From Acidobacteriota bacterium (GTDB taxonomy: Bacteria > Acidobacteriota > Vicinamibacteria > Vicinamibacterales > 2-12-FULL-66-21), in contig JBKPLP010000168.1 of NCBI GenBank assembly GCA_046731735.1, forward strand, positions 389-64,388: a stretch of 64,000 nucleotides of DNA. Reading direction: 5' to 3'. Each line of letters begins with the position of its first letter. The stretch's first letter is position 1. Below, piece by piece: positions 3,558 to 48,280 of this stretch. The notes below the pieces were generated by a model, which ran no database searches, had not been told where the DNA came from, and was given only the letters and a program-made list of their open reading frames with translations. The position numbers were made by a program, and so were the translations under genes.

Positions 3558-3563
3558 CAAGCT

Positions 3564-3703
3564 GAATCCCTAATCCCTAATCGCGAATCCCTCATCCTCG
3601 AATCCAGGAATCGCTGAATCCGTGTCGCTAAATCCGCGAATCCCTGAATCCGCGAATCGCGAGCCGCGAATCGCGAGCCGCGAAGATTTACGGATTGGGG
3701 ATT
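3564..3703. repeat. Short-period repeat array R1 (GAATCCC/TAATCCC units, then CCGCGAATCGCGAG x2.3; inverted GGATTGGGGATT at the right end)
   Basis: Read directly in the convergent gap between 1629..3557(+) and 3688..6576(-). The right end overlaps the last codons of the M16 gene. Confidence 0.85.
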
Positions 3704-8207: not shown

Positions 8208-8284
8208 CTACCTTCTACCTTCTACCTTCTACCTTCTACCTTCTACCTTCGTCTCCTACGTCCTACCTCCTATCTCCTACCTCC
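8208..8284. repeat. Heptamer array R2: (CTACCTT)x6 perfect plus 5 degenerate units (CGTCTCC TACGTCC TACCTCC TATCTCC TACCTCC)
   Basis: Counted directly: 42 nt of perfect 7-nt periodicity at 8208-8249. The M28 stop codon (8277-8279) and its last two Arg codons lie inside the array. Confidence 0.95.
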
Positions 8285-9911: not shown

Positions 9912-9927
9912 TCGGGAATTCTATCCG

Positions 9928-10126
9928 CGCCTACGCCGCGAAGCGGCTTCGGCGAGGCTCGCGGTAGCCGGCGCTCGCACTCACGCCGGCGTAGGCGGGC
10001 GGATCCCGGATCCCGCATCCCGGATCCCGCATCCCGGGTCCCCCGCCTGCGCCGCAAAGCGGCTACGGCGCGGCCTCGCCGTAGCCGGCGCTCACACTCA
10101 CGCCGGCGTAGGCGGGCGGATCCCGG
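9928..10126. repeat. Composite palindromic element: two ~80-nt REP-like units (9928-10008 and 10044-10126, ~90% identical by eye) flanking GGATCCC/GCATCCC heptamers (10001-10043)
   Basis: Each unit has an outer 11-bp stem CGCCTACGCCG/CGGCGTAGGCG. Unit 2 has a perfect inner 11-bp stem CGGCTACGGCG-cggcct-CGCCGTAGCCG (10060-10087). The element fills the divergent gap between the M28 and AKR genes. Confidence 0.85.
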
Positions 10127-11511: not shown

Positions 11512-11544
11512 GCCACCGGCTGGTCGCCGGTGGCTTTCGTTTTT
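11512..11544. terminator. Rho-independent terminator after rpmE, possibly bidirectional (GCCACCGGC-tggtc-GCCGGTGGC followed by TTTCGTTTTT)
   Basis: Perfect 9-bp GC stem and T-rich tail read directly. It abuts the stop of the convergent gene at 11544. Confidence 0.75.
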
Positions 11545-12884
11545 CAGCGGCAGAGCTGGTCGAGAAGCGGCACCGCCCGAGTCGAGATCTTGCGTTCCAA
11601 CCGCGCCAGCCGATGCCGGGTCGCGTCCGCTTTGGGGCGGAGATTGGCCTGGGCCGATTCTTCGAGAAGCATCAGCGCGAGCTCCCTGGCACCTGCGTAG
11701 TCGCGCTCGCGATGTTCGTGATGGACCGCAAGCGCCTCGGCGGCAACCTGGCGGAGCGGCCCCAGCAGCTCGCTGCGCCGGCCAAAACGCGGCTGCCGCA
11801 AGTCGAGAATCGTCCGCCACACCGCCGCGGCCTCCGCGAACCGCCGATCGCGCCGAAGCCGCCGCGCCTTGAGATACAGCGCTTCCGCCCTGACGTCGAT
11901 GTGTGCTCCGGGGTCAGCCGCTGCGTGCTCGAAGCACCCGGCCGCACGATCGGCACATCCGGCTCGTTCGTAAATCTTCCCCAGGGCGAGCGCTTCCGCC
12001 GCGTCGCGGCAGCGCGGCGTGCCCTCGTGCACGAGCCGCGACGCATGCGCGGTCAGCGCCGCCAGCGAGACGAGATCGATCCGGTTGTGCTCGAGCACGG
12101 GTTCGAGGGGACAGGGATCGCCGGAACGCACGAACCGAAAGAAGCGCGACGGGATCTCCAGTCCGGGAACGTCGCCGATCCGGCGCACGTCGAAGAGCGC
12201 ACGCTCGAGCGTCGACAGGCGGCAGCCATTTTCGTCGTCCCGCCATAGCCGGCGTGCCGGATGCAGCATGTCGAAATGCGGCACCCGCTCGAGCGACGGC
12301 TCCATCCGGTGAAACAGCCAGCGCGTCTCCATCACCGGCACGTCGAACGTTTTCCCGTTGTAGGTGACGATCAGATCCGCGTCCTCGAAGAAATCCGCGC
12401 AGGCGGCGAGGAGCGCGCGCTCCTTCGAATGGCTGGTGAGCAGAAACTGCCGCACCTGAAACGCGCCGACGTCGAAATATCCACACCCCACCAGGAACGC
12501 GACCATTCCGGCGCCGCCGCTCAGTCCCGTCGTCTCCAGATCGATGAAGATCGTCCGCGGCACCTGACCGCAACGGGCGGCTGGCCAGCCCGCGGTCACC
12601 GCCGCAAGCGAAGGGTCGAGAACGGCCAGCGCGGCAACATCTGCCAACTCGCAATCGCCGATGCGGATACCGCCGTGCCACCGATCCGACTCGTACCGCC
12701 GATCGACGACGAGGCACTCGCCGAACTCGGTATCGATGCGCCGCCCACCGAGCGCGCTGGCCACCCGGTCCAGATCCAGCGCCGCCGCATTCCGATACCC
12801 GTCATCGGGCTCGTAGGTGAGCTCGCGCGTCGGTGTCGGTGGACCGCTTTTGACGATGGCGCGCAGCCGCGAGGAGAGATCCAT
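11544..12884 (-). CDS. RNase H-like (DEDDh) 3'-5' exonuclease with C-terminal TPR region; YprB/MrfB-like
   Basis: IFIDLETTGL (Exo I), TYNGKTFDVPV (Exo II), HNRIDL (Exo III). The C-terminal helical repeats are TPR-like. Its ATG overlaps the stop of the upstream helicase (ATGA). Confidence 0.8.
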   Translation of the reverse strand: MDLSSRLRAIVKSGPPTPTRELTYEPDDGYRNAAALDLDRVASALGGRRIDTEFGECLVVDRRYESDRWHGGIRIGDCELADVAALAVLDPSLAAVTAGWPAARCGQVPRTIFIDLETTGLSGGAGMVAFLVGCGYFDVGAFQVRQFLLTSHSKERALLAACADFFEDADLIVTYNGKTFDVPVMETRWLFHRMEPSLERVPHFDMLHPARRLWRDDENGCRLSTLERALFDVRRIGDVPGLEIPSRFFRFVRSGDPCPLEPVLEHNRIDLVSLAALTAHASRLVHEGTPRCRDAAEALALGKIYERAGCADRAAGCFEHAAADPGAHIDVRAEALYLKARRLRRDRRFAEAAAVWRTILDLRQPRFGRRSELLGPLRQVAAEALAVHHEHRERDYAGARELALMLLEESAQANLRPKADATRHRLARLERKISTRAVPLLDQLCR

Positions 12885-15403
12885 CAGACCGTCTGGACCT
12901 CGAGCAGGCGATCGAGAATGCGCGATGCCACCGTCTTCGCATGCGGTCCCGTGTTCCCTTCAGGGCCGACGCACGAGGGACAGCCCGACGCACACGGACA
13001 TCCGACGATCAGCTCGCGCGTACGCTCGAGCAGCAGATCGTGCATGTCATAAAGGGGACGGCTGAAGCCGATCCCGCCGGGATAGTTGTCGTAGACAAAG
13101 ATGTTCGGTTCGCTCGCCAGGGCGTCTGGCACCCCGCCCATCCCGCCGGTCCGCGTCGTCCGATCGAGCGACCCGCCGTCTACCGACAGTCCGATGTCGT
13201 GCCCGTCGCACATCAGCAGCAGCTGCGCGATGTTCTTCATCGCGAACGCCAGCCCGATGACGCCGTCGCGTCGATCGTCGCCGGCAAATGGCAGCGACGC
13301 GATGACGTCGCCCGGAATCGTCAGCCAGTACGCCGACGTGTGCATCTGCTGCTCCGGCAGATCGAGCTCGCCGGACCCGACATTCTCGTTGGTGTAGAAC
13401 TTGATCTTCTTGAAGCCGACGACGCGCGACACGACATGGACCTCGCCGTGGGACTTCGCCGCGTCCGGGATCCGGGATCCGGGATCCGGGATCCGATCGG
13501 ATCCCGCATCACGCATCCCGCACCCCGATGCGAAGGTATCGAGAATCGTCACCTTGGTGTAGGTGATCGCGTTCGTGTAGTAGTCGCAGTCGACATGACG
13601 GAGGTACGCTTTCCGCCCGTCGAAATCCAGGCGCTCGACCTGGAACAGCTGCCCCTCCAGGATGTAGATCGCCTTTTCGTGGAGTATCGCCGGCGCGCTG
13701 GTGAAATCGGTCTCGCCGATCACGCGTTCGCCGTTCGTCGTGTCGATGACCACGAAGTTGTCCGACGACACGGATCGCAGGCTGACGGCGTCGGCGGGGT
13801 ACGATTCGTTTGTCCAGTTCCACTGCCCGTCCGCCTGGTGCACGAAGCCTTCTTCCGACAGCACCGCCAGCACCGCCTGCACGTCGACGTCTCCGGCGCG
13901 TCCGTCGGCGCCGAACTGCTCGTCGTTCGTGAACGGCAGCTCGAAGGCGGCGCATTTGACGTGATCGAGCAGGATGTGCAGGTTGTCGGGATTGATGAGC
14001 GCATGCTCGGGCGACGCGCCGAAGAAGTACGACGGGTTGCGCACGATGAACTGATCGATCGGCGCGCTGCTCGCCACCAGCACCGCCGCCGACCTGGTCG
14101 TCCGGCGGCCGGCCCGCCCGGCGCGCTGCCACGTGGCCGCGATCGTACCCGGGTAGCCGGCGAGTACCGCGACGTCGAGCGCGCCGATGTCGATCCCGAG
14201 CTCGAGCGCGTTCGTCGACACCACCGCGCGCACCTGTCCCTCGCGCAAGCCACGCTCGATCTCGCGCCGCCGGTTCGGCAGGTAGCCGCCGCGATAGCCG
14301 CGAATCACGTCGGCGGCGCCGGGGGGACCATGAAACGCGTCCTTGAGATACGTCGTCAGGATCTCGACCGCGAGGCGGCTCTGGCCGAACACGATCAGCT
14401 GGAGGTTGTGCTTGAGGAACTCGAGCGCGACCCGGCGGGTTTCCGCGAGGTACGACCGCCGGATGCCCAGCTGCGCGTTCACGACCGGCGGGTTCACGAA
14501 GAGAAAGAACTTTTCCCCGCGCGGCGCGCCGTTCTTCTCCACCAGCTCGAACCGACGCCCGATCAGCCCTTCGGCGAGCTCGCGCGGGTTCGCGATCGTC
14601 GCCGACGAGCAGATGAAGATCGGATCCGATCCGTAGTGACGGCAGATCCGCTGCAGGCGCCGCATGATGTTCGCGAGGTGACTGCCGAACACGCCACGGT
14701 ATGCGTGCAGCTCGTCGACCACGACGAAGCGAAGGTTCTCGAAGAGTTTCCCCCAGCGCGGATGGTGCGGCAGGATCCCGGAGTGCACCATGTCGGGGTT
14801 GCTGAGGACCACGTGCGCTTTGCCGCGGATCGCGCGCCGCGCGTCGGCCGGCGTGTCGCCGTCGTAGGTGAAGACCCCGATCTCGAGCTCCGTGCCTCGC
14901 GCGACGATTTCCGACAGCGTGTGGAGCTCCGCCAGCTGGTCCTGCGCGAGCGCCTTCGTCGGAAAGAGATACAACGCGCGTGTCGCCGGATCCTGCAGAA
15001 TCGCGTTCATTACCGGCGCGTTGTAGCAAAGCGTCTTTCCCGACGCGGTGGGCGTGATGGTCACGACGTTCCGGCGCGCGAGGACGTGGTCGAACGCCTC
15101 CGCCTGGTGCGTGTAGAGCTGCTCGATGCCGCGGGTACGAAGCGCCGAAACGAGCCGTTCGTCGGTCCCGTCCGGATACGGCGCGAACGCCGCGGGGATC
15201 GCCGGCAGACGGTGCGCCGCCGTGACGATCGGCTCCTCCTCGGGACCAAGCGGCCCGCGCGAGGACGTCAGCCGGCTCAACACCTCCTGCAGCAGCCGAT
15301 CTTTGTCTCCGGTAACGACGGGCAGGGTCTGGTTCGGCATGGAAACTATTGACCGCACAGGAATTGCGGGGCCCATCGTAGCAGGCCACGGGGAGGCGAT
15401 CAA
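12884..15403 (-). CDS. DEAD/DEAH-box helicase with C-terminal DUF1998/MZB Cys-cluster domain; YprA/MrfA-like. Start uncertain (TTG 15403, ATG 15376 or ATG 15340)
   Basis: Motif I TPTASGKT, motif II DELH, motif III SAT, motif VI QRAGRAGR, C-terminal CPCASGCPSC. Confidence 0.9.
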   Translation of the reverse strand: MIASPWPATMGPAIPVRSIVSMPNQTLPVVTGDKDRLLQEVLSRLTSSRGPLGPEEEPIVTAAHRLPAIPAAFAPYPDGTDERLVSALRTRGIEQLYTHQAEAFDHVLARRNVVTITPTASGKTLCYNAPVMNAILQDPATRALYLFPTKALAQDQLAELHTLSEIVARGTELEIGVFTYDGDTPADARRAIRGKAHVVLSNPDMVHSGILPHHPRWGKLFENLRFVVVDELHAYRGVFGSHLANIMRRLQRICRHYGSDPIFICSSATIANPRELAEGLIGRRFELVEKNGAPRGEKFFLFVNPPVVNAQLGIRRSYLAETRRVALEFLKHNLQLIVFGQSRLAVEILTTYLKDAFHGPPGAADVIRGYRGGYLPNRRREIERGLREGQVRAVVSTNALELGIDIGALDVAVLAGYPGTIAATWQRAGRAGRRTTRSAAVLVASSAPIDQFIVRNPSYFFGASPEHALINPDNLHILLDHVKCAAFELPFTNDEQFGADGRAGDVDVQAVLAVLSEEGFVHQADGQWNWTNESYPADAVSLRSVSSDNFVVIDTTNGERVIGETDFTSAPAILHEKAIYILEGQLFQVERLDFDGRKAYLRHVDCDYYTNAITYTKVTILDTFASGCGMRDAGSDRIPDPGSRIPDAAKSHGEVHVVSRVVGFKKIKFYTNENVGSGELDLPEQQMHTSAYWLTIPGDVIASLPFAGDDRRDGVIGLAFAMKNIAQLLLMCDGHDIGLSVDGGSLDRTTRTGGMGGVPDALASEPNIFVYDNYPGGIGFSRPLYDMHDLLLERTRELIVGCPCASGCPSCVGPEGNTGPHAKTVASRILDRLLEVQTV
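13462..13524. repeat. Palindromic heptamer element R4 inside the helicase CDS ((CGGGATC)x4 - GGATCCGATCGGATCC core - degenerate GCATCCC arm)
   Basis: The 16-nt perfect palindrome is at 13489-13504. About 44 nt are identical (in reverse orientation) to the intergenic copy at 47080-47152. It is translated in frame as CGMRDAGSDRIPDPGSRIPD. Confidence 0.85.
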
Positions 15404-15420
15404 GTGGCGAAGGTGCGGGG

Positions 15421-15716
15421 GGATCGATTGACGATTGCAGACTGCCGATTGCCGATTTCATAGATTGACGGTTGCAGATTGAGATTGGCGAGTGCTGAGT
15501 GCCAGTGTCGACTGCTGAGTGCCGAACGCCGAATCCGAATGAAAATGTGATTAATCAGAATGGCAATCGAGATCAGGAGTCGCAATCGACAATCGGCAAT
15601 CCCATTCGGCAATCGGCAATGCAATCGACAACCGGCAATCCCAATCGACAATCAACAAATCTCAATCGACAATCGGCAATCGCAAAATCGGCACTCGGCA
15701 ATCGTCAATCGGCATT
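15421..15716. repeat. Largest array R5: left arm of CGATTG-type units, right arm of CAATCG-type units (reverse complements), AT-richer centre
   Basis: Read directly. The outermost 14 nt pair perfectly (15425-15438 CGATTGACGATTGC with 15698-15711 GCAATCGTCAATCG). The centre has TGCTGAGTGCC x2 flanking GTCGAC. Confidence 0.9.
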
Positions 15717-17045
15717 GCGACTGCGCGCCACCCTCGCGGCCATCCCGCTCAGGCCGACGACGCCGATCAGGTTCGGGAAGATTTGCAGCGCGTTCATCAG
15801 ATCACCCCAGGCCCATACGAGATCCACCTTGGCGATCGCGCCGAACGGAATCAGCAGGCAATAGATCCACCGATAGGGCGTGACCACGCGCGGGCCCAGC
15901 CAGTACTCGAGGAACTGCTCGCCGTAGTAGGCCCAGCCGATCAGCGTGCCATAGCCGAACAGGAACACACAGAACGCAACCAGATAGCCACCCACACCCG
16001 GCATGACTGAATTGAACGCGAGCCCCACCGCCGCAGTACTCGTTGCCCGCTGCGCGGCGGGCACGCTCCAGTCGACGACGCCGGAGAGCATGACGGTCAG
16101 AGCGGTCAACGTGCAGGTGCCGAATGACACGATGAAGGTTTCCATGACCGCATTGAGCCCTTGCTGGGCCGGCCGCGCGCTCTGCGCCGTGCCGTAGGCC
16201 ACCGCGGACGTGCCGTACCCCGCCTCGTTCGCGTAGAGTCCGCGGGCGAGGCCATAACGGATGGCGGTGAAGACCCCGAAGCCCATCGCCGATCGCGTGG
16301 TAAACGCTTCACGAAAAACCATCGTGAGGACGTCCGGTAAACGCGACGCGAACGACACGATGACGATGAGACTGCCCACGAGATAGATGCCGATTTTCGC
16401 GGGCGCGAGCTTCTCGAATGCGCGGCCGATCGATTTGATCCCGCCGATGATGACCAGCCACGTGAGCAGGGCAACTGCGCCGCCGGTGATCCATCGCGGC
16501 ACGCCGACCTGAGTATTCATGACGAGAGCAATCGAATTGGTTTGGGTAAACGGGGTGGTCGTCAGTGCGGCGATGCCGGCGACGACGGCGTAGGTCATCG
16601 CGAGCGCCGGCGAACGCAGCCCGTCGCGCAGGTAGTACATCGGCCCCGAGCGCACGTCCTCGCGGCCGATCGCGGCCCGGAAGCTCAAACCGAGCACCGC
16701 TTCGCTGAACTTGATCGCGGTGGCGAAGAAGCCATAGCACCAGACCCAGAACAGCATGCCGGGACCGCCGGAGACAACGCCCGCGGCAACACCGGCGATG
16801 TTCCCCGTGCCGATCGTCGTGCCGAGCGCAGTCATGAACGCCTGAAAGGGCGTGAGCACGCCCGCGGCGCCGGCGACGCGACCGCCGAAGAACGCGCGCA
16901 GCGCCTCGCCGAACCGTCTGATCTGTACGACACGGAGCCGGAGCGTCAGAAAAATACCTGCCCCGAACAGCACGGCGACGAGGACGGGGACGAACAGCCA
17001 GTCTGCGGTGGACTGAATCAGGGCCGCAAAACGGCTCGAAATCAT
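15705..17045 (-). CDS. Alanine/glycine:cation symporter (AGCS family)
   Basis: 446 aa, about 11 TM; FQAFMTALGTTIGTGNIAGVA motif typical of AGCS transporters. Confidence 0.85.
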   Translation of the reverse strand: MISSRFAALIQSTADWLFVPVLVAVLFGAGIFLTLRLRVVQIRRFGEALRAFFGGRVAGAAGVLTPFQAFMTALGTTIGTGNIAGVAAGVVSGGPGMLFWVWCYGFFATAIKFSEAVLGLSFRAAIGREDVRSGPMYYLRDGLRSPALAMTYAVVAGIAALTTTPFTQTNSIALVMNTQVGVPRWITGGAVALLTWLVIIGGIKSIGRAFEKLAPAKIGIYLVGSLIVIVSFASRLPDVLTMVFREAFTTRSAMGFGVFTAIRYGLARGLYANEAGYGTSAVAYGTAQSARPAQQGLNAVMETFIVSFGTCTLTALTVMLSGVVDWSVPAAQRATSTAAVGLAFNSVMPGVGGYLVAFCVFLFGYGTLIGWAYYGEQFLEYWLGPRVVTPYRWIYCLLIPFGAIAKVDLVWAWGDLMNALQIFPNLIGVVGLSGMAARVARSRNAD

Positions 17046-26500: not shown

Positions 26501-26516
26501 CCGGCGGGCAAAACAC

Positions 26517-26683
26517 GAATCCCTAATCCCTCATCGTGAATCCTCAATCTTCGGATCGTGCGAATCGCTGAAACGGTGAATCGGCCGGCTCGCTGATTGG
26601 CTGAGGCGGCGGTTCAGAATTCGCCGATTCGCAAGCTACTGGGATTGGGGATTGGCGGATTGGGGATTGGGGATTAGGGATTG
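26517..26683. repeat. Array R6: left arm GAATCCC/TAATCCC units (26517-26551), right arm GGGATT(G) units (26641-26683), reverse complements of each other
   Basis: Read directly in the divergent gap between the CBS and PadR genes. The right arm has G-runs GGG, GGGG, GGGG, GGGG, GGG. Confidence 0.9.
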
Positions 26684-29783: not shown

Positions 29784-29845
29784 TGAATCCCTAATCCCTA
29801 ATCGCGAAGCCCTGAAGCCCTGAAGCCTTGAAGCCTTGAAGCCCC
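29784..29845. repeat. Array R7: TGAATCCC TAATCCC TAATCGC then (GAAGCCYY)x5 octamers
   Basis: Read directly in the convergent gap between ADOP(+) and DUF2277(-). Confidence 0.9.
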
Positions 29846-32243: not shown

Positions 32244-34457
32244 ATGAAGACGCCACGACGTGTCCGCCTCGCCGCTGCCGCTGTCGCGGCCACCGCCCTC
32301 GTCGTCCCACTCCTCGCGCAGCAGCCCGCGCGCGCGCGCGCGATCACGGCCGCCGACTACGCGCGGGCAGAGAAATTCATGACCTGGAACACGACGCCGC
32401 TCGTGTACCGGTCAGGCGCGCGTCCGACGTGGATCGAAGGCGATCGCTTCTGGTACCGCGTGACCACGCCGACGGGAAATGAAGCGATCCTCGTCGATGC
32501 GGCGAAGGGGACGAAGGAGCGGTGTACGCTTCCAGCCTGCACGGCCCCCGCAGCGGCTGGCCGTGGCGGACGCGGCGGCGGTCAGGCCGCACCGTCGACG
32601 ATCAGCCTGTCTCCCGACGGAAAGCGCGCCGCGTTCATCCGCGACTGGAACCTGTGGATGCGCGAGGTTCCCGGCGGCAAGGAGACCCAGCTCACGGCCG
32701 ACGGCGTGAAGGACTTCGGATACGCCACCGATAACGCCGGCTGGGCGAAGAGCGAGCGGCCCATTCTCGTCTGGTCGCCGGACTCCAGGAAGATCGCCAC
32801 GTTTCAGCAGGATCAGCGCCGCGTCGGCGAGATGTATCTCGTCAGCACCGAGGTCGGACATCCGAAACTGGAGGCCTGGAAATACCCGCTGCCGGGGGAC
32901 GACACGGTATCGATGATCCACCGGGTCATCATCGACGTCGACGGTCCCAGAATCGTGCGGCTGAAGATGGATCCCGATCAGCATCGCAGCACGCTGTGCG
33001 ACAACCTCTCCTGCCGCGGGGGCGATTGGGCGGACGTCCAGTGGGCGGCCGATTCGTCCGCGGTCGCATTCGCGTCGACGTCGCGCGATCACCGGGTGAC
33101 GACGTTGCGCGTCGCGGATCCCGGCACCGGGAACGTGCGCGACGTGCTGCAGGAACAGGTGGGAACGTTCTTCGAGTCCGGCAACGGCAGGATCAACTGG
33201 CGATATTTGCCCGCCTCCAACGAGGTGATCTGGTTCTCGGAGCGCGAGAACTGGGGCCATCTGTATCTCTACGACCTGCAGAGCGGGAAACTGAAGCGCG
33301 CGATCACGAGCGGCGATGGCAACGTGACGCAGGTCGTCCGCGTCGACGAGAAAGCGCGCGTCGTCTTCTTCCAAGCGGTCGGGCGCGAGAAAGGACGCGA
33401 TCCGTACTTCACGCACTTCTATCGCGTCGGCATGGACGGCGGGGCTCCGGTGCTGCTCACGCCCGAGGACGCGACACACGAAATCGCGATGTCGGACTCC
33501 GGCAGATATTTCGTGGACAGCTATTCGAAGCCGGATGTGCCTCCGGTTACAGTCCTGCGCGACGCCACCGGAAAGATGATCGTAGAGCTCGAGAAGTCGG
33601 ACATCACGAAGCTGCTGGCGACCGGCTGGAGGCCGCCGACGCCGATCGTCGTGAAGGCGCGCGACGGCTCGACGGATCTTTACGGGCTCATGTACCGGCC
33701 GACGAAGCTCGTGCCGGGGCGCAAGTATCCGATCGTCAATCACATCTATCCGGGGCCGCAGACCGGCAGCGTCGGCGGACGCACGTTCTCCCCGGCGCGC
33801 GGCGACGCGCAGGCGCTCGCCGAGCTCGGCTTCGTCGTCGTCGAGATCGACGGCATGGGCACTCCGTGGCGATCGAAGAAGTTTCACGAGGCCTATTACG
33901 GCAACATGGCCGACAACACGCTGCCCGACCAGGTCACGGGCATGAAGCAGCTGGCGCAGAAGTACCCGTTCATCGACATCACCCGCGTCGGCATTTACGG
34001 CCACTCGGGCGGCGGCTACGCCGCGGCCGGCGCGATGTTCCACTATCCCGACTTCTTCAAGGTCGGCATCTCCGAATCGGGCAACCACGACAACCGGGTG
34101 TACGAGGACGATTGGGCCGAGAAGTGGATCGGGCTGCTGGAAAAGGATGAAGCGCTGGCGGCCGCCTACGAGAAACAGGCGAATCAGCTCGTCGCCGGCA
34201 ATCTGAAGGGAAAACTCCTGCTCGCGCACGGGACCATGGACGCGAACGTCCCGCCGAACAACACGCTGCTCGTCGTCGACGCGCTGATCAAGGCCAACAA
34301 GGATTTCGACCTGCTGATGATCCCGAATGCCGGCCATGGGTATGGCAACGCCGGCAACTACATGACGCGGCGCCGGTGGGATTACTTCGTGAAGAACCTG
34401 CTCGGGATGGACCCGCCGAAGGAGTACGTGCTCGAAAACCGAATCCCTAATCCCTAA
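32244..34457 (+). CDS. S9 family dipeptidyl-peptidase IV-like serine peptidase, secreted
   Basis: GHSGGGY nucleophile motif, later D (HGTMDANV) and H (NAGHGY); N-terminal beta-propeller length; signal peptide. Confidence 0.9.
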   Translation: MKTPRRVRLAAAAVAATALVVPLLAQQPARARAITAADYARAEKFMTWNTTPLVYRSGARPTWIEGDRFWYRVTTPTGNEAILVDAAKGTKERCTLPACTAPAAAGRGGRGGGQAAPSTISLSPDGKRAAFIRDWNLWMREVPGGKETQLTADGVKDFGYATDNAGWAKSERPILVWSPDSRKIATFQQDQRRVGEMYLVSTEVGHPKLEAWKYPLPGDDTVSMIHRVIIDVDGPRIVRLKMDPDQHRSTLCDNLSCRGGDWADVQWAADSSAVAFASTSRDHRVTTLRVADPGTGNVRDVLQEQVGTFFESGNGRINWRYLPASNEVIWFSERENWGHLYLYDLQSGKLKRAITSGDGNVTQVVRVDEKARVVFFQAVGREKGRDPYFTHFYRVGMDGGAPVLLTPEDATHEIAMSDSGRYFVDSYSKPDVPPVTVLRDATGKMIVELEKSDITKLLATGWRPPTPIVVKARDGSTDLYGLMYRPTKLVPGRKYPIVNHIYPGPQTGSVGGRTFSPARGDAQALAELGFVVVEIDGMGTPWRSKKFHEAYYGNMADNTLPDQVTGMKQLAQKYPFIDITRVGIYGHSGGGYAAAGAMFHYPDFFKVGISESGNHDNRVYEDDWAEKWIGLLEKDEALAAAYEKQANQLVAGNLKGKLLLAHGTMDANVPPNNTLLVVDALIKANKDFDLLMIPNAGHGYGNAGNYMTRRRWDYFVKNLLGMDPPKEYVLENRIPNP

Positions 34458-34556
34458 TCCATGGATCCCTAATCCTGGAATCCCTAATCCTGGAATCCCT
34501 AATCCACGAATCCCTGAAGCCGCGAATCGTTGAATCCATGAATCGCTTCAATCCTT
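34439..34556. repeat. Array R8: GAATCCC/TAATCCC/TAATCCT units, partly as the 15-mer GGAATCCCTAATCCT x3
   Basis: Read directly. It supplies the last codons (N)RIPNP and the TAA stop of the DPP4 gene. Confidence 0.9.
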
Positions 34557-44319: not shown

Positions 44320-44402
44320 ACTTGAGTCCCAGCCTCTGTTAACACCCGAAATGGTATGTCGTATCCGGATTGCAGTCGAGCCGCAAGGGATAATGGTCCG
44401 GC

Positions 44403-47075
44403 ATGACCGACGCCCCGCGCGATCCCCATGAACGGCTTCGAGACGACGTACGGTTGCTGGGCGGCCTGCTCGGCGAAACGCTGCGCCTGCGCGAAGGCGC
44501 TGCGCTCTACGAAACAGTGGAACGCGTCCGAGCGCTGTCGAAGAGCGGCCGCGCCGGCAGCGACCGCGATCTCGATGCGCTTGCCGATCTCCTGCGGACG
44601 CTGCCGGTCGAATCGGCGGTACCGGTGGCCCGCGCCTTTTCGCACTTCCTGACGCTGGCGAACATCGCCGAGCAGCATCACCGGGTCCGGCGGCGGCGCC
44701 AGTACCTGCGCGATCCGCACGCGGCGCCCCAGCGCGGGTCCTGCGACGAAACGTTCGCACGTCTCACGTCCCACGGCGTCACCGCCGATGCGTTGCATGC
44801 GGCGACGACGTCGATGCGTGTCGAGCTGGTGCTGACGGCGCATCCGACGGCGATCACACGGCGGACGCTGATCCAGAAGCACCTTCGCATTGCCGACGCG
44901 CTCTCGCGGCAGGATCGCGACGATCTCACCGTGCCGGAACGGCAGGAGATCGTCGAGACGCTTCGGCGAGAGGTGATGGCCTCGTGGGAAACGGACGAAA
45001 TCCGCGCGCGCCGGCCGACGCCCGTCGACGAAGCGATTGCCGGGCTGCTGATTTTCGAGCAGACGCTCTGGGACGCGGTGCCGAGGTTCTTGCGCTCGCT
45101 CGATGCCTCGCTGAAGCGCGCCACCGGCCGCCCGCTCCCGCTGGACGCGGCACCGCTGCGCTTCGGCTCGTGGATGGGGGGCGATCGCGATGGCAATCCC
45201 ACGGTAACCCCCCGGGTGACGCACCTCGCGTGCGGCGTGGCCCGGTGGATGGCTGCCGACCTGTACGAGCGGGAGATTGCCGCGCTGCGCGCGGAACTGT
45301 CGATGACGCCGGCGACGAAGGAACTCCAGACGCGCGCAAACGGCGCGCGCGAGCCCTACCGCGCGGTGTTGCGGGAGGTTCGGGATCGGCTGCGCGCGAC
45401 CCGCGATCATTTCGGCGGCGAGCTGGCGCGCGCCGAACTGCTCAAGGGAGACGCGACGCCGGGAAAGGCCGCGCCCTACTTATCGGTCGCGGATCTCCGT
45501 GAACCGCTGCAGCTCTGTTACCGATCCCTCGTCGAGACCGGTCAGCAGGTGATCGCCGACGGCCGCCTGACCGACCTCCTGCGGCGCACCGCCGCGTTCG
45601 GGCTCACGCTCGTGCGGCTCGATCTCCGGCAGCACGCGGCGCGGCACGCGGCGGCGCTCGATGCCATCACGCGCCATCGCGGCGACGGTTCGTACCTCGA
45701 ATGGGATGAAGCGAAGCGGCAGGCGTACCTCACGGCCGCTCTGCGCGGCTCGACGCCGCTCGTCCCCGACGATCTCGTAGCGGATGACGAGGTGCGGGAC
45801 GTCGTGGCGACCTTCAGACTCGCAGGCCTGCTCGATCCGGAGTCGCTCGGCGCCTACGTGATCTCGATGGCACAGGCCCCCTCCGACGTGCTCGCCGTCG
45901 AAGCATTCCAGGCTCATTCGAAGCACCGGCTCCGCGTGGTGCCGCTCTTCGAACGGGTCGACGATCTCCAAGCCGCAGCCGGGACGCTGCGCGAGCTCCT
46001 CGCGATTCCGGAATATCGCCGGCGGATTGGCACCGAACAGGAGGTGATGATCGGGTATTCCGACTCCGCCAAGGATGGCGGCCGATTGGCGGCGAACTGG
46101 GCGTTGTACCTCGCCCAGGAATCCATCGTCGACGTGTGCCGTGAGGCGAACGTCCAGCTGACGCTGTTCCACGGCCGCGGCGGCAGCATCAGCCGCGGCG
46201 GCGGCCCGACCTATCTCGCGATCCAGTCCCAGCCCCCCGGGTCGGTGAACGGGCGCCTTCGGGCGACCGAACAGGGAGAAATGATCCAGGCACAGTTCGG
46301 CCTGCCGGAGATCGCAACCCGCACGCTGGAGCTCTACACCACCGCCACGCTCGCCGCGACGCTCGAAGTGGCCCCTCAGCCGGATCCGCGCTGGCGGCCC
46401 GTGATGGATCGCCTCGCGGAGGCCGCGCGCGGCGTGTACCGCGAGGTCGTCTACGACAACCCGCGGTTCGTCGAGTATTTCCGCAAGGCGACGCCGGAGG
46501 TCGAGCTGGGTGTCGTGCCGATCGGAAGCCGTCCGGTGCGCCGCACCGAGGACGGCGGGGTCGATTCGCTGCGCGCGATCCCCTGGGTGTTCGCGTGGAC
46601 GCAGACGCGGCTCCTCCTGCCGTCATGGCTGGGAACCGGCGAAGCGCTGGCGGCGGCGCTCGAGCGTGGCGAGCTGGACGTGCTGAGGAAGATGTACGAG
46701 CAGTGGCCGTTCTTCCGCTCGACGCTGGACTTGATCGCGATGGTGCTCGCGGAATCGGACGCGCGGATTGCCGCCGAATACGACCGTCGCCTCGTCCCTC
46801 CGGATCTGCAGCCGGTCGGCACCGACCTGCGCCGCCGCCTCGATGCGACGATTCAATCGGTGCTGACGACGACGGGCAAAGAACGGCTGCTGACGGAGAA
46901 CGTCGTGCTCAGGCGGTCAATCGAGGTGCGCAACCCGTACGTCTATCCGATCAACCTCGTGCAGATCGAGCTGCTGCGCCGGCTCCGCGAAGAGGGGCAC
47001 GACGATCCGCAAATCACCAACGCGTTCCAGGTGACCGTCAACGGCATCGCTGCGGGGATGCGGAATACTGGTTGA
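44403..47075 (+). CDS. ppc: Phosphoenolpyruvate carboxylase
   Basis: TAHPT, VMIGYSDSAKDGG, FHGRGGSISRGGGP and the C-terminal GMRNTG signature. Confidence 0.95.
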   Translation: MTDAPRDPHERLRDDVRLLGGLLGETLRLREGAALYETVERVRALSKSGRAGSDRDLDALADLLRTLPVESAVPVARAFSHFLTLANIAEQHHRVRRRRQYLRDPHAAPQRGSCDETFARLTSHGVTADALHAATTSMRVELVLTAHPTAITRRTLIQKHLRIADALSRQDRDDLTVPERQEIVETLRREVMASWETDEIRARRPTPVDEAIAGLLIFEQTLWDAVPRFLRSLDASLKRATGRPLPLDAAPLRFGSWMGGDRDGNPTVTPRVTHLACGVARWMAADLYEREIAALRAELSMTPATKELQTRANGAREPYRAVLREVRDRLRATRDHFGGELARAELLKGDATPGKAAPYLSVADLREPLQLCYRSLVETGQQVIADGRLTDLLRRTAAFGLTLVRLDLRQHAARHAAALDAITRHRGDGSYLEWDEAKRQAYLTAALRGSTPLVPDDLVADDEVRDVVATFRLAGLLDPESLGAYVISMAQAPSDVLAVEAFQAHSKHRLRVVPLFERVDDLQAAAGTLRELLAIPEYRRRIGTEQEVMIGYSDSAKDGGRLAANWALYLAQESIVDVCREANVQLTLFHGRGGSISRGGGPTYLAIQSQPPGSVNGRLRATEQGEMIQAQFGLPEIATRTLELYTTATLAATLEVAPQPDPRWRPVMDRLAEAARGVYREVVYDNPRFVEYFRKATPEVELGVVPIGSRPVRRTEDGGVDSLRAIPWVFAWTQTRLLLPSWLGTGEALAAALERGELDVLRKMYEQWPFFRSTLDLIAMVLAESDARIAAEYDRRLVPPDLQPVGTDLRRRLDATIQSVLTTTGKERLLTENVVLRRSIEVRNPYVYPINLVQIELLRRLREEGHDDPQITNAFQVTVNGIAAGMRNTG

Positions 47076-47079
47076 AATG

Positions 47080-47152
47080 TGCCGGGATGCGCGATGCGGG
47101 ATGCGGGATCCGATCGGATCCCGGATCCCGGATCCCGGATCCCGGATCCCGA
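47080..47152. repeat. Palindromic heptamer element R9: (GATGCGG/GATGCGC) arm - GGATCCGATCGGATCC core (47106-47121) - (GGATCCC)x5 arm (47116-47150)
   Basis: Read directly in the convergent gap between ppc(+) and the HhH gene(-). Same element as 13462-13524, in opposite orientation. Confidence 0.9.
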
Positions 47153-47157
47153 TTCTC

Positions 47158-47799
47158 CTATCCAATCGCCAGATACCGCTTCAGCCTCGCCACTTCCTTG
47201 GCGTCGACGTACTTCCCGATCTCCTTGTCGAACTGCTCCCAGGACTTCCACGGGCGGTATTCCTTGAACTCCCCTACCATGCGCGGGCCGACGCCGGGGA
47301 TCGTCAGGAAATCCGCGTCGGTCGCGGTGTTCAGGTTGATCGGGATGAAGCAGTACTGCGCGAGCTTCGCGGTCGCGTCGGCGCCGACGTACTTGCCGAT
47401 CTCTTTGTCGAACTGCGCCCACGTCTTCCACGGCCGGTATTCGGCGAACTCGCGCGTCATCCGCTGGCCGGCGCCCGGCACGAGCAGGATCTCGTCGCGC
47501 GTGGCGGTGTTGAGGTTGATGTGGACGAACGCCTTCTGGTAGAAGTCCATCGCCTCTTCCTGCTTCAGTCCCTGGCCGATCAGAAACGTGTTCAGCTCGG
47601 TGATGTTCTTGAACGGCCGGACCCCCACGAGCGCCTTGGCGATGGCCGGCGTCATGTGCGGCATCTTCGCGAGGTCCGCTTCCGCAGCCGTGTTCGCGTC
47701 GACGACGCCCTGCGATTTGCCGACCTGGGCGTGTACGGCCGGCGAGGCGACGACCAGCGCGAGCAGCGCCGCGAACACCCGGAGTTTTCGAGCAGTCAT
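47158..47799 (-). CDS. Secreted helix-hairpin-helix (ComEA-like) repeat protein, 213 aa
   Basis: Signal peptide and three HhH-like units (DANTAAEADLAKMP.., INLNTATRDEILLVPGAG.., INLNTATDADFLTIPGVG..). AAGGAGA lies 6 nt upstream of ATG 47799. Confidence 0.8.
   Translation of the reverse strand: MTARKLRVFAALLALVVASPAVHAQVGKSQGVVDANTAAEADLAKMPHMTPAIAKALVGVRPFKNITELNTFLIGQGLKQEEAMDFYQKAFVHINLNTATRDEILLVPGAGQRMTREFAEYRPWKTWAQFDKEIGKYVGADATAKLAQYCFIPINLNTATDADFLTIPGVGPRMVGEFKEYRPWKSWEQFDKEIGKYVDAKEVARLKRYLAIG
47161..47520. repeat. Tandem 180-nt (60-aa) duplication inside the HhH gene
   Basis: INLNTAT..EYRPWK(T/S)W(A/E)QFDKEIGKYV.. occurs twice. The GGTGTTSAGGTTGAT landmarks at 47326-47340 and 47506-47520 give a 180-nt period. 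Confidence 0.8.
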
Positions 47800-47812
47800 G
47801 TTGTCTCCTTGA

Positions 47813-48280
47813 CTATGTGTAGGGCGGCCCTTGACGGGCCGCCGAGATCGTCGGATAGCGATAGCAATACGCCAATCCAATCAGTCCAAGCTGCGCCATC
47901 GATCCCGGTGCGAGCGCGGGCGGCGCCTTCGCCGCCACGGCCTTCCAGAACAGCGGCATCCCGGACAGCGAGCGGTCCATCTCGAGCTGGAATTCGACAT
48001 TCGCCTGATAGTGCAGGACCATCCCAATCAGCCCCGCTGCGATGAACAACACCATGGTGATCTGCACCGTCATCAGGCTCGCGGCGCCGGGCCGGGCCGC
48101 GTGCCAGGCGAGCACGGGCAGCCCGAGCCCGAGCAGCACGAGCGGAATGAGCTGGGTTCCCTCCTCGACATGCTTCAGCAGCAGCAGCTCGATCGTCGTC
48201 CCCACCATTCCAATCAGCAGGATCGCGAGGAGCACGCGGCGGATCACGACCAGCGGTGCCGGCTCCGGTGCCTCGGCCAC
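47813..48280 (-). CDS. Small membrane protein (four TM helices), unknown function
   Basis: 155-aa hydrophobic ORF, 13 nt upstream of the HhH gene on the same strand. Confidence 0.6.
   Translation of the reverse strand: MAEAPEPAPLVVIRRVLLAILLIGMVGTTIELLLLKHVEEGTQLIPLVLLGLGLPVLAWHAARPGAASLMTVQITMVLFIAAGLIGMVLHYQANVEFQLEMDRSLSGMPLFWKAVAAKAPPALAPGSMAQLGLIGLAYCYRYPTISAARQGPPYT

Follow-up and report, generated by a model that had tools for sequence, protein, structure and literature searches.

Introduction

Rickettsia palindromic elements (RPEs; Ogata et al. 2000, 2002) occur, according to the passages devoted to them in PMC10969869, in frame within housekeeping genes unrelated to one another, at sites that the fold of the encoded proteins can accommodate. 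They measure approximately 100 to 150 bp, encode a conserved peptide specific to each RPE family, contain no tandem heptamers, and populate the AT-rich, reduced genomes of intracellular alphaproteobacteria. Here, we analyze a 64-nt quasi-palindrome built of tandem heptamers, which is translated in frame within the gene of an MrfA/YprA-type DNA repair helicase from a soil acidobacterium with a G+C content of 66%. The gene is located in a 64,000-nucleotide stretch of a metagenome-assembled contig (JBKPLP010000168.1, positions 389 to 64,388), referred to as the window throughout. The element and the RPEs are alike in being dispersed palindromes found both between genes and in frame within conserved genes, where they contribute an extra peptide that empty orthologues lack, and by this comparison RPEs appear to represent the closest known mechanism. 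The likeness is one of mode of action, whereas composition and architecture (heptamer arms, 64 nt) set the two apart, with no homology expected; furthermore, unlike in the case of RPEs, it is here a single protein turn that has, across one order, received many elements unrelated to one another.

Short GC-rich imperfect palindromes, often residing between convergent genes, are also represented by repetitive extragenic palindromic (REP), BIME, and REPIN sequences and by MITEs (miniature transposable elements with inverted repeats), such as Correia, ERIC, and Nezha (PMC10969869). As in the window, these form composites and nested structures, and ERIC and some MITEs occasionally lie in frame within genes (PMC10969869). 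REPs are extragenic by definition, whereas the helicase copy of the element lies inside a coding sequence (CDS) and its sister copies are extragenic; unlike in REPs and MITEs, the arms of the element consist of tandem 7-nt units. For the repeat itself, the closest known match appears to be offered by intergenic heptanucleotide arrays, including the cyanobacterial STRR sequences, the TAACTGA repeats of marine Beggiatoaceae, and the long simple sequence repeats of Mrazek et al. (PMC4679880). Like the heptamers described herein, the cyanobacterial and Beggiatoaceae units are tandemly repeated and abundant in intergenic regions, with intragenic copies limited by stop codons (PMC4679880). The STRR and TAACTGA arrays are direct and have proposed regulatory roles upstream of start codons, whereas in the window facing complementary arrays form a hairpin, the unit is free of stop codons in all six frames, and one copy is positioned deep within a conserved enzyme. 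The phase-variable simple-sequence contingency loci of Neisseria, Haemophilus, and others resemble the helicase locus in having a perfect tandem tract within an open reading frame (ORF) and a unit that is not a multiple of three, but here the type of gene and the position of the tract are atypical, and no frameshifting unit variants were present in 164 loci. In the full-text literature, we found no paper describing heptamer repeats in Acidobacteria or Vicinamibacter, which is not proof of their absence from it.

The host gene has its counterpart in the MrfA/YprA and MrfB pair of B. subtilis (PDB 6ZNP; PMC7797055), with which it shares similarity over the full length of the helicase, the DELH motif, the WH, OB, CON, and MZB domains, and a downstream RNase_H_2-type gene. 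In MrfA, the connector (CON; residues 557-630) is an elongated three-stranded antiparallel beta-sheet between OB and MZB, and its proline hinges couple the movement of OB to the rotation of MZB (PMC7797055). The CON hairpin turn aligns to ~16 residues of MrfA (DKTKEKSRTSLHYGD region), compared to 27 aa in the window protein and 6 to 89 aa in its close orthologues.

Results

A heptamer quasi-palindrome is translated within the helicase gene

On the coding strand, the element (Table 1) reads CGGGGTGC GGGATGC GTGATGC GGGATCC-GATC-(GGATCCC)x4 GGA, with TCCGGGATCCGGGATCCGGGATCCGGGATCCGATCGGATCCCGCATCACGCATCCCGCACCCCG as its plus-strand sequence, and encodes approximately SGCGMRDAGSDRIPDPGSRIPD. Its arms are tandem heptamers (GGGATGC/GGATCCC) flanking a GATC center, and Tandem Repeats Finder (TRF) reported 2 period-7 arrays, at positions 13464-13495 (4.6 copies, 100% match) and 13501-13527 (3.9 copies). 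The two arms form an overlapping palindrome with 85% complementarity. The resulting hairpin of ~30 bp, formed by facing stop-free heptamer arrays, reaches -54 kcal/mol when folded as RNA (z = -4.55), and none of 200 shuffled sequences was equally stable. Translation passes through positions 13464-13527 without a stop (..TFASGCGMRDAGSDRIPDPGSRIPDAAKSHGE.. / ..TILDTFASGCGMRDAGSDRIPDPGSRIPDAAKSHGEVHVV..) in an ORF of 839 codons (12884..15403, minus strand), in agreement with the first-pass annotation of this DNA, which had proposed an in-frame copy of a repeat element inside an MrfA-like helicase.

The same annotation had described a core of ~44 nt common to the helicase copy and an intergenic element. 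This core was recovered at exactly 2 sites of the window, 13467-13510 (minus strand) and 47100-47143 (plus strand), with 0 mismatches, and was not expected by chance (none in 100 dinucleotide-preserving shuffles). Over their length, the helicase copy and the intergenic sister copy match at 61 of 64 nt (95%) across a distance of 33.6 kb, with the helicase coding strand corresponding to the plus strand of the sister. Both copies display the same asymmetry of arms, with GGGATGC-type units on the left and perfect GGATCCC units on the right. The genes flanking the sister copy, for phosphoenolpyruvate carboxylase (44394-47075, plus strand) and an HHH-motif protein (47158-47880, minus strand), converge on it with their 3' ends. 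When the window was searched with (GGATCCC)3 and at most 3 mismatches were tolerated, matches appeared only at 10000-10042, 13460-13519, and 47091-47157. The 52-nt direct repeats of the composite at 9925-10126 are 117 nt apart, in the divergent region between genes for an M28 peptidase and an aldo/keto reductase. Neither the helicase copy nor the intergenic copy at 47082-47152 is followed by a T-run or U-tract, which rules out an intrinsic terminator at either, and the whole 64-kb window yielded zero Rfam matches at the gathering score, which rules out a known RNA family.

Table 1. Repeat elements and genes of the helicase locus and related repeats in the window
Feature	Position	Strand	Remarks
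Heptamer quasi-palindrome, 64 nt	13464..13527	- (coding)	in frame in the MrfA/YprA helicase CDS
Intergenic sister copy, (CGGGATG-type)x4-GATC-(GGATCCC)x5	47082..47152	+	inverted-repeat comparison, TRF, folding
Third array, alternating GGATCCC and GCATCCC units	10000..10042	+	intergenic
Intergenic composite, two REP-like hairpins around a heptamer array	9925..10126		52-nt direct repeat, 96%
MrfA/YprA-type DNA repair helicase CDS	12884..15340	-	818 aa (P0001); ORF reaches 15403 with TTG
MrfB-like gene, RNase_H_2 (PF13482) exonuclease domain	11544..12884	-	1-nt overlap with helicase stop

The insert is predicted to extend the connector hairpin

Alignment of the helicase with PDB 6znp (E = 6e-231) covers residues 63-832 and resumes on both sides of the insert. 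Pfam detected the DEAD, Helicase_C, WHD_HRQ1, and MZB domains; the protein carries the DELH motif and the four-Cys MZB motif (CPC..CPSC), and its domains follow the order RecA1-RecA2-WH-OB-CON-MZB. In the 6znp alignment, the insert lies opposite residues ~574-590 of B. subtilis MrfA (LKVLEI-DKTKEKSRTS-LHYGDVTV). By this alignment, the insert maps to a beta-hairpin turn of the CON element, and the resulting loop is presumably solvent-exposed by homology to 6ZNP. The first-pass annotation had placed the peptide between 2 beta-strand-like stretches of the C-terminal DUF1998/MZB region: the flanking strands agree with our alignment, but the domain does not, because MZB spans ORF residues 719-812 according to Pfam, with the insert outside it. 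Its statement that YprA/MrfA homologues have no such sequence there holds for B. subtilis MrfA and for most of the wider family: among 108 representatives of the wider family, which are 36-60% identical to the window protein, the turn measures 11 aa in 67 and at most 20 aa in 103.

The pairing of the helicase with an MrfB-like gene was also found in loci L082, L083, and L164. A comparison of indels in the MrfB-like gene was too noisy for numbers, owing to wrong-frame ORFs and a fast, coarse alignment, and suggests a variable linker past residue ~102. Upstream of the helicase start, ~300 nt (15425-15714) consist almost entirely of repeats, with ~19 GCAATCG-type heptamers built as a 20-nt unit in ~6 repeats. 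When positions 12800-15800 were scanned, sigma-70-like matches were present only inside this array, on the plus strand, that is, opposite to the helicase.

Length variation is concentrated in one turn of the protein

We compared the helicase with its 120 best database relatives, which are 81-93% identical to it and originate from Acidobacteriota metagenomes and metagenome-assembled genomes (MAGs). Large length changes were confined to residues 601-640 and to a rarer second site near residue 145 (10 of 120), with the remaining differences amounting to 1-3 residues or falling at the protein termini. The segment between the invariant TILDTF and HGEVHVV ranges from 6 aa (ESATRS, in P0042) to 89 aa (P0017). 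At the second site, in RecA1 (residues ~141-160 of P0001; window ~14861-14920), the 10 proteins carry 12-36 extra residues, for example LLREESARGPREAPEGSAEGAAERERVGVGPHARVS; the window helicase has no insert there.

For analysis at the nucleotide level, we assembled DNA of the turn from 164 loci, comprising 80 species-representative genomes (all MAGs, mostly labeled Vicinamibacterales or Acidobacteriota), 80 metagenome contigs, the window, and 3 of 4 contigs fetched by protein identity. The turn DNA spans 24-273 nt, with a median of 87; it is 33 nt or shorter in 24 loci and exceeds 120 nt in 37. The reading frame is nevertheless kept in 163 of the 164 loci. An empty site is present in L082/P0042, which reads TFESATRSHGE; at 24 nt, its turn is 63 nt (21 codons, or 9 heptamer lengths) shorter than that of the window. 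Minimal loops of this kind, in L082/P0042 and P0032, occur at 88-90% protein identity. In L083, the loop retains only the right arm (51 nt), and in L081, the closest DNA relative of the window locus (92% protein identity), it has the full 87 nt, as in the window, with variant units in the opposite arm.

Set against the short turn of the wider family, these lengths indicate that hypervariability of the turn is a trait of the order Vicinamibacterales, not of the helicase family. Four distant proteins outside the close clade (P0359, P0317, P0272, and P0274) bear inserts of 48-74 aa at the same connector turn, the one in P0359 being a tandem repeat of ~20 aa; the turn seems, judging from these proteins, to be permissive in other lineages as well.

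Many unrelated repeats fill the turn

In most of the close orthologues (81-93% identity), the left part of the turn contains GSGIRDPGS.. and its right part ..RIPDPGSRIP, corresponding to translated (GGGATCC)n and (GGATCCC)n, respectively. Three GGATCC-type units yield GIRDPGS or GSRIPDP, and the GCATCCC variant yields ASRIPHP or GMRDAGC; the window peptide GCGMRDAGS results from this variant unit. Heptamers of other lineages also occur at the turn, namely (AGCTTCC)n, translated as SFQLPAS, and (GGCACGA)n, translated as GTRHEAR, as do the 7-aa periodic peptides TTDHGPR and EPGTANR. In addition, the turn holds perfect palindromes without tandem repeats, found in L026/L032 (25-bp stem), L023, L050, and L066.

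Of 128 turns of at least 45 nt, z < -3 was reached by 34, which form 17 clusters without detectable mutual similarity, the GGATCC family being the largest (16 loci). When the first 64 loops were folded, 17 had z < -3, compared to 0 of 64 control segments of the same genes. For 6 sequences, dinucleotide-controlled folds gave z-scores of -3.3 to -8.2; the very stable hairpins reached -54 to -70 kcal/mol, with z-scores of -4.5 to -8.2. The first-pass annotation had raised the question of whether the insert is lineage-specific; a one-time event does not fit the related heptamer segments of most close orthologues and the 17 families in Vicinamibacterales.

The same repeats occur between genes and within other genes

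The helicase turn of L001 matches the window intergenic region 10017-10090 with 89% identity over 74 nt. The match includes the point at which a REP-like hairpin (in frame as AGYGETPPKPLRGEAG) meets GGATCC heptamers, and in L001 the whole composite of hairpin and heptamers is in frame in the helicase loop, where it reads ..AGYGETPPKPLRGEAGGSGIRDPGS... The REP-like hairpin is also translated (AGYGE..RGEGG) in the helicase loop of several orthologues. In a few loci (L032, L022, and L003), parts of the loop element recur elsewhere in the same contig of 6-22 kb. The exact 18-nt center of the window element, GGGATCCGATCGGATCCC, was found in 0 of the 164 related loci. Copies within the window genome are 95% alike, whereas the orthologous elements of the window and L081 are ~84% alike, as counted by eye, with 86.4% identity in the coding flanks of the same pair.

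Loci totaling 1.41 Mb contain 121 heptamer arrays according to a census with crude stop-to-stop gene calls, and 83 of these arrays are outside ORFs or at their edges. Approximately 24 of the 38 arrays counted as inside an ORF correspond to the helicase turn, and the rest mostly lie near ORF ends. Genuine inserts in other proteins include two cases: a Wzy_C (O-antigen ligase family) membrane protein in L040 (14923-16983, minus strand) contains 2 in-frame RIPDP-type inserts (..DRGSRIPDPV.. and ..PRIPDPRSRIPA..), and in an EngB-like GTPase in L051 (10455-11117, minus strand) the match to the G domain is split by ..TGSRLPAPG..PAAGRREPEAV... A further candidate, L025 10137-10166, was dropped as an intragenic array, since the Arg-rich ORF around it is in the wrong frame. 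Querying protein databases with the translated repeat yielded 538 proteins with E ≤ 1, of which the best 120 are all 42-86 aa long and domain-less, so that no further host families emerged from them; these metagenome annotations are likely spurious ORFs over stop-free intergenic repeats.

Frame constraint and turnover of the loop

All six frames of the GGATCCC and GCATCCC units are free of stop codons. Stops do occur on both strands of AATCCCT, whose arrays in the window are exclusively intergenic, and on one strand of CTACCTT. Since 7 and 3 are coprime, a heptamer array is translated into the same 7-residue repeat whichever frame is read, so that only the total length of the array sets the downstream frame. 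Close relatives differ in loop length by multiples of 21 nt, as exemplified by L113 (165 nt) and L109/L110 (144 nt), and DPGSRTT units number 4 in P0114 and 1 in P0070. The loop of L001 is a nested composite in which a 45-nt block is triplicated. Fitch parsimony on 150 loci required a minimum of 15 events in which the GGATCC type was gained or lost, and at least 12 changes of the minimal-loop state. Comparison of the window element (13464-13527) with L081 (2290-2378) showed GGGATGC and its complement GCATCCC in opposite arms; an inversion in place was considered, which is not distinguishable from arm-to-arm correction or ectopic conversion. A diversity-generating retroelement was dismissed, since indels and whole units, not substitutions at set sites, make up the variation of the loop; a template repeat was not noticed, with no search aimed at one.

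The only out-of-frame locus is L054 (11803-11905), the closest species-representative genome (88% identity). It is 97.9% identical to L164 over 2.48 kb, with only 2 gaps, both being 1-nt insertions in the spacer of the element (GGATCC[G]GTT and GC[T]TGTC), and neither corresponds to a heptamer step. Both contigs stem from long-read MAG projects, the frameshifted one being a Nanopore assembly, and the indels adjoin GATC and CTCGAG motifs; a base-calling error, perhaps at modified bases, is as likely a cause as a real lesion.

Other repeats of the window

Heptamer arrays of the window sit at gene boundaries. Besides the GGATCCC-type arrays, many of the intergenic regions examined carry arrays of other units, at 3561-3684, 8208-8282, 15425-15714, 26503-26683, 29786-29844, and 34439-34554. 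Their unit types include AATCCCT, GAATCCG, CTACCTT, GCAATCG, GGGATTG, and GAAGCCCT, none of which matches Rfam, and some units are present in both orientations at separate sites. Within the gene of the HHH-motif protein, positions 47174-47529 contain a 176-nt direct repeat (73%, 180 nt apart), which looks like an internal domain duplication. At the left end of the window, positions 556-900 hold several direct repeats of 30-48 nt with a period of ~33 nt and the common core AACGTCGTCTGGGGCAC; if translated, they would form a repeat-protein motif.

Discussion

Based on the comparisons described above, we consider it probable that a dispersed palindromic heptamer element persists passively, in frame, in a permissive connector turn, with fast turnover filtered by selection for the reading frame. 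A hairpin repeat that is otherwise intergenic in this Vicinamibacterales (Acidobacteriota) genome would have been copied, by transposition or by ectopic recombination or conversion, into the DNA encoding the tip of the CON beta-hairpin of an MrfA-type repair helicase, and would have persisted because its 63 nt are a multiple of three, its unit is stop-free in six frames, and the turn is permissive. The product would be a helicase with ~21 extra Gly/Pro/Ser/Asp/Arg-rich residues, most likely functionless. Subsequent changes may involve gain or loss of 21-nt units, nesting of repeats, loss of an arm, complete loss, and homogenization with copies in the same genome, with frame-breaking variants purged by purifying selection. 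As far as sequence comparison can tell, the connector turn behaves as a recurrent sink for unrelated repeats with rapid turnover. Tolerance of an intergenic repeat as an in-frame loop had been suggested in the first-pass annotation, and the copy identity, the kept frame, and the empty site of L082 bear this out. From one element family to another, the left junction shifts by 1-8 codons, which rules out a precise insertion target as the main cause of the hot spot and favors survival within a permissive turn over a specific target sequence.

Several observations weigh against this interpretation. No transposase or RAYT was identified in the 64-kb window, whose genes were considered without a systematic RAYT screen, and comparison by eye of the filled site of the window with the empty site of L082 revealed no clear target-site duplication; the whole element is one inverted repeat, with no boundary defined beyond the palindrome itself. 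Consequently, it is copy identity alone that speaks for mobility. An AlphaFold2 model based on 55 close orthologues (85-96% identical) was of unusable quality (mean predicted local distance difference test score, 46.8; predicted template modeling score, 0.37), so that placement of the insert relies on the 6ZNP alignment and the published domain boundaries. CON is the moving hinge that couples OB and MZB, so that lengthening its tip might have some effect. The z-scores behind the counts of 34 in 128 and 17 in 64 turns derive from mononucleotide shuffles, and the parsimony estimates from a simple neighbor-joining tree of the flanks with a crude trait definition. Finally, the density of hairpins at one codon position could reflect selection for a nucleic-acid structure.

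The repeat could instead have arisen locally, by slippage and template switching within a quasi-palindrome, its likeness to intergenic DNA reflecting a genome-wide mutational bias toward heptamers. This origin would account for the many heptamer unit types filling the intergenic regions of the window, for the 21-nt step variants between close relatives (L109/L110 and L113; P0114 and P0070), and for the variant units in opposite arms of the window element and L081, which are expected from arm-to-arm template switching. We regard it as unlikely, given that the two window copies are identical over 44 nt, including a non-repetitive center that is absent from the related loci, and agree in the pattern of variant units. 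Local slippage would also have to explain a non-repetitive REP-like hairpin joined to heptamers both in the loop of one genome and in the intergenic DNA of another, as well as the many palindromes without tandem repeats at this site (L023, L026/L032, L050, and L066). A misplaced, collapsed or chimeric repeat in a metagenome-assembled contig comes to mind because short repeats are hard to assemble, but the reading frame is intact and independent assemblies show the same architecture at the same codons (L081, with 87 nt, and L001, L002, L054, and L164), making an artifact exceedingly improbable.

Gain or loss of a 7-nt unit might toggle the helicase, together with a translationally coupled MrfB-like nuclease, in the manner of phase variation, and the first-pass annotation had likewise raised slippage as a means of switching the helicase off. 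The tandem tract within the ORF does have a period (7 nt) that is not divisible by three and 4.6 perfect copies, and the frameshift of L054 falls exactly within the element, with the rest of the gene intact. Yet, the frame is intact in 163 of 164 loci, among them 83 from metagenomes that were obtained with tblastn independently of gene calls, the steps between relatives are of 21 nt, none of the 164 loci shows 7-nt unit-number variants giving on and off frames, and the shift of L054 stems from 2 spacer insertions of 1 nt in long-read assemblies. The tract is also located approximately three quarters into a housekeeping repair gene, not in a surface or restriction gene near its 5' end, and orthologues drop it entirely while retaining the gene; such a switch is, in our judgment, very improbable. 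Alternatively, the hairpin or the peptide could itself be under selection, acting as an mRNA structure that slows the ribosome between OB/CON and MZB, by tuning the MrfA:MrfB ratio through RNase cleavage or attenuation, or by modulating the CON hinge. The recurrence of unrelated palindromes at the same turn (at least 17 sequence families), the very stable folds (-54 to -70 kcal/mol), and the mechanically active nature of CON are what such selection would predict. Considering that 24 of 164 loci have minimal loops (33 nt or less), that 94 of 128 long loops lack a significant hairpin and resemble products of decay, that neither window copy has a terminator signature or an Rfam match, that the peptide sequence is not conserved, and that the wider family keeps an 11-aa turn, we hold a selected role to be quite improbable. 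It is also conceivable, although rather unlikely, that the hairpins constitute an undescribed class of self-propagating or mobile DNA in Vicinamibacterales, which targets sites or uses hairpins as landing pads, with the MrfA loop as a preferred target or a selected structure and with convergent gains. If so, the loop might, as an internal mRNA or DNA hairpin, tune the expression of MrfA and MrfB or be a substrate-like structure tied to the activity of the helicase.

Under passive persistence of a dispersed element, the locus brings in-frame repeat DNA in conserved proteins, best known from Rickettsia, to the abundant soil Acidobacteriota, with a different element. Its novel aspects are the facing stop-free heptamer arrays, the lineage of the host, and the gathering of numerous unrelated elements in a single turn of one enzyme. 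For annotation, the findings carry a warning: gene callers turn stop-free intergenic repeats into small "hypothetical proteins," and in-frame repeats inflate the apparent divergence of their host proteins. The turn, which is fixed at 11 residues in most bacteria and varies from 6 to 89 residues in one order, where at least 17 unrelated hairpin elements occur in it, amounts to a well-replicated natural experiment and lends itself to studying the spread of such elements, the pace of their turnover, and the insertion load that a protein hinge can bear. The helicase loop of Vicinamibacterales would clearly illustrate, in a natural setting, the tolerance of selfish DNA at a site within a protein.

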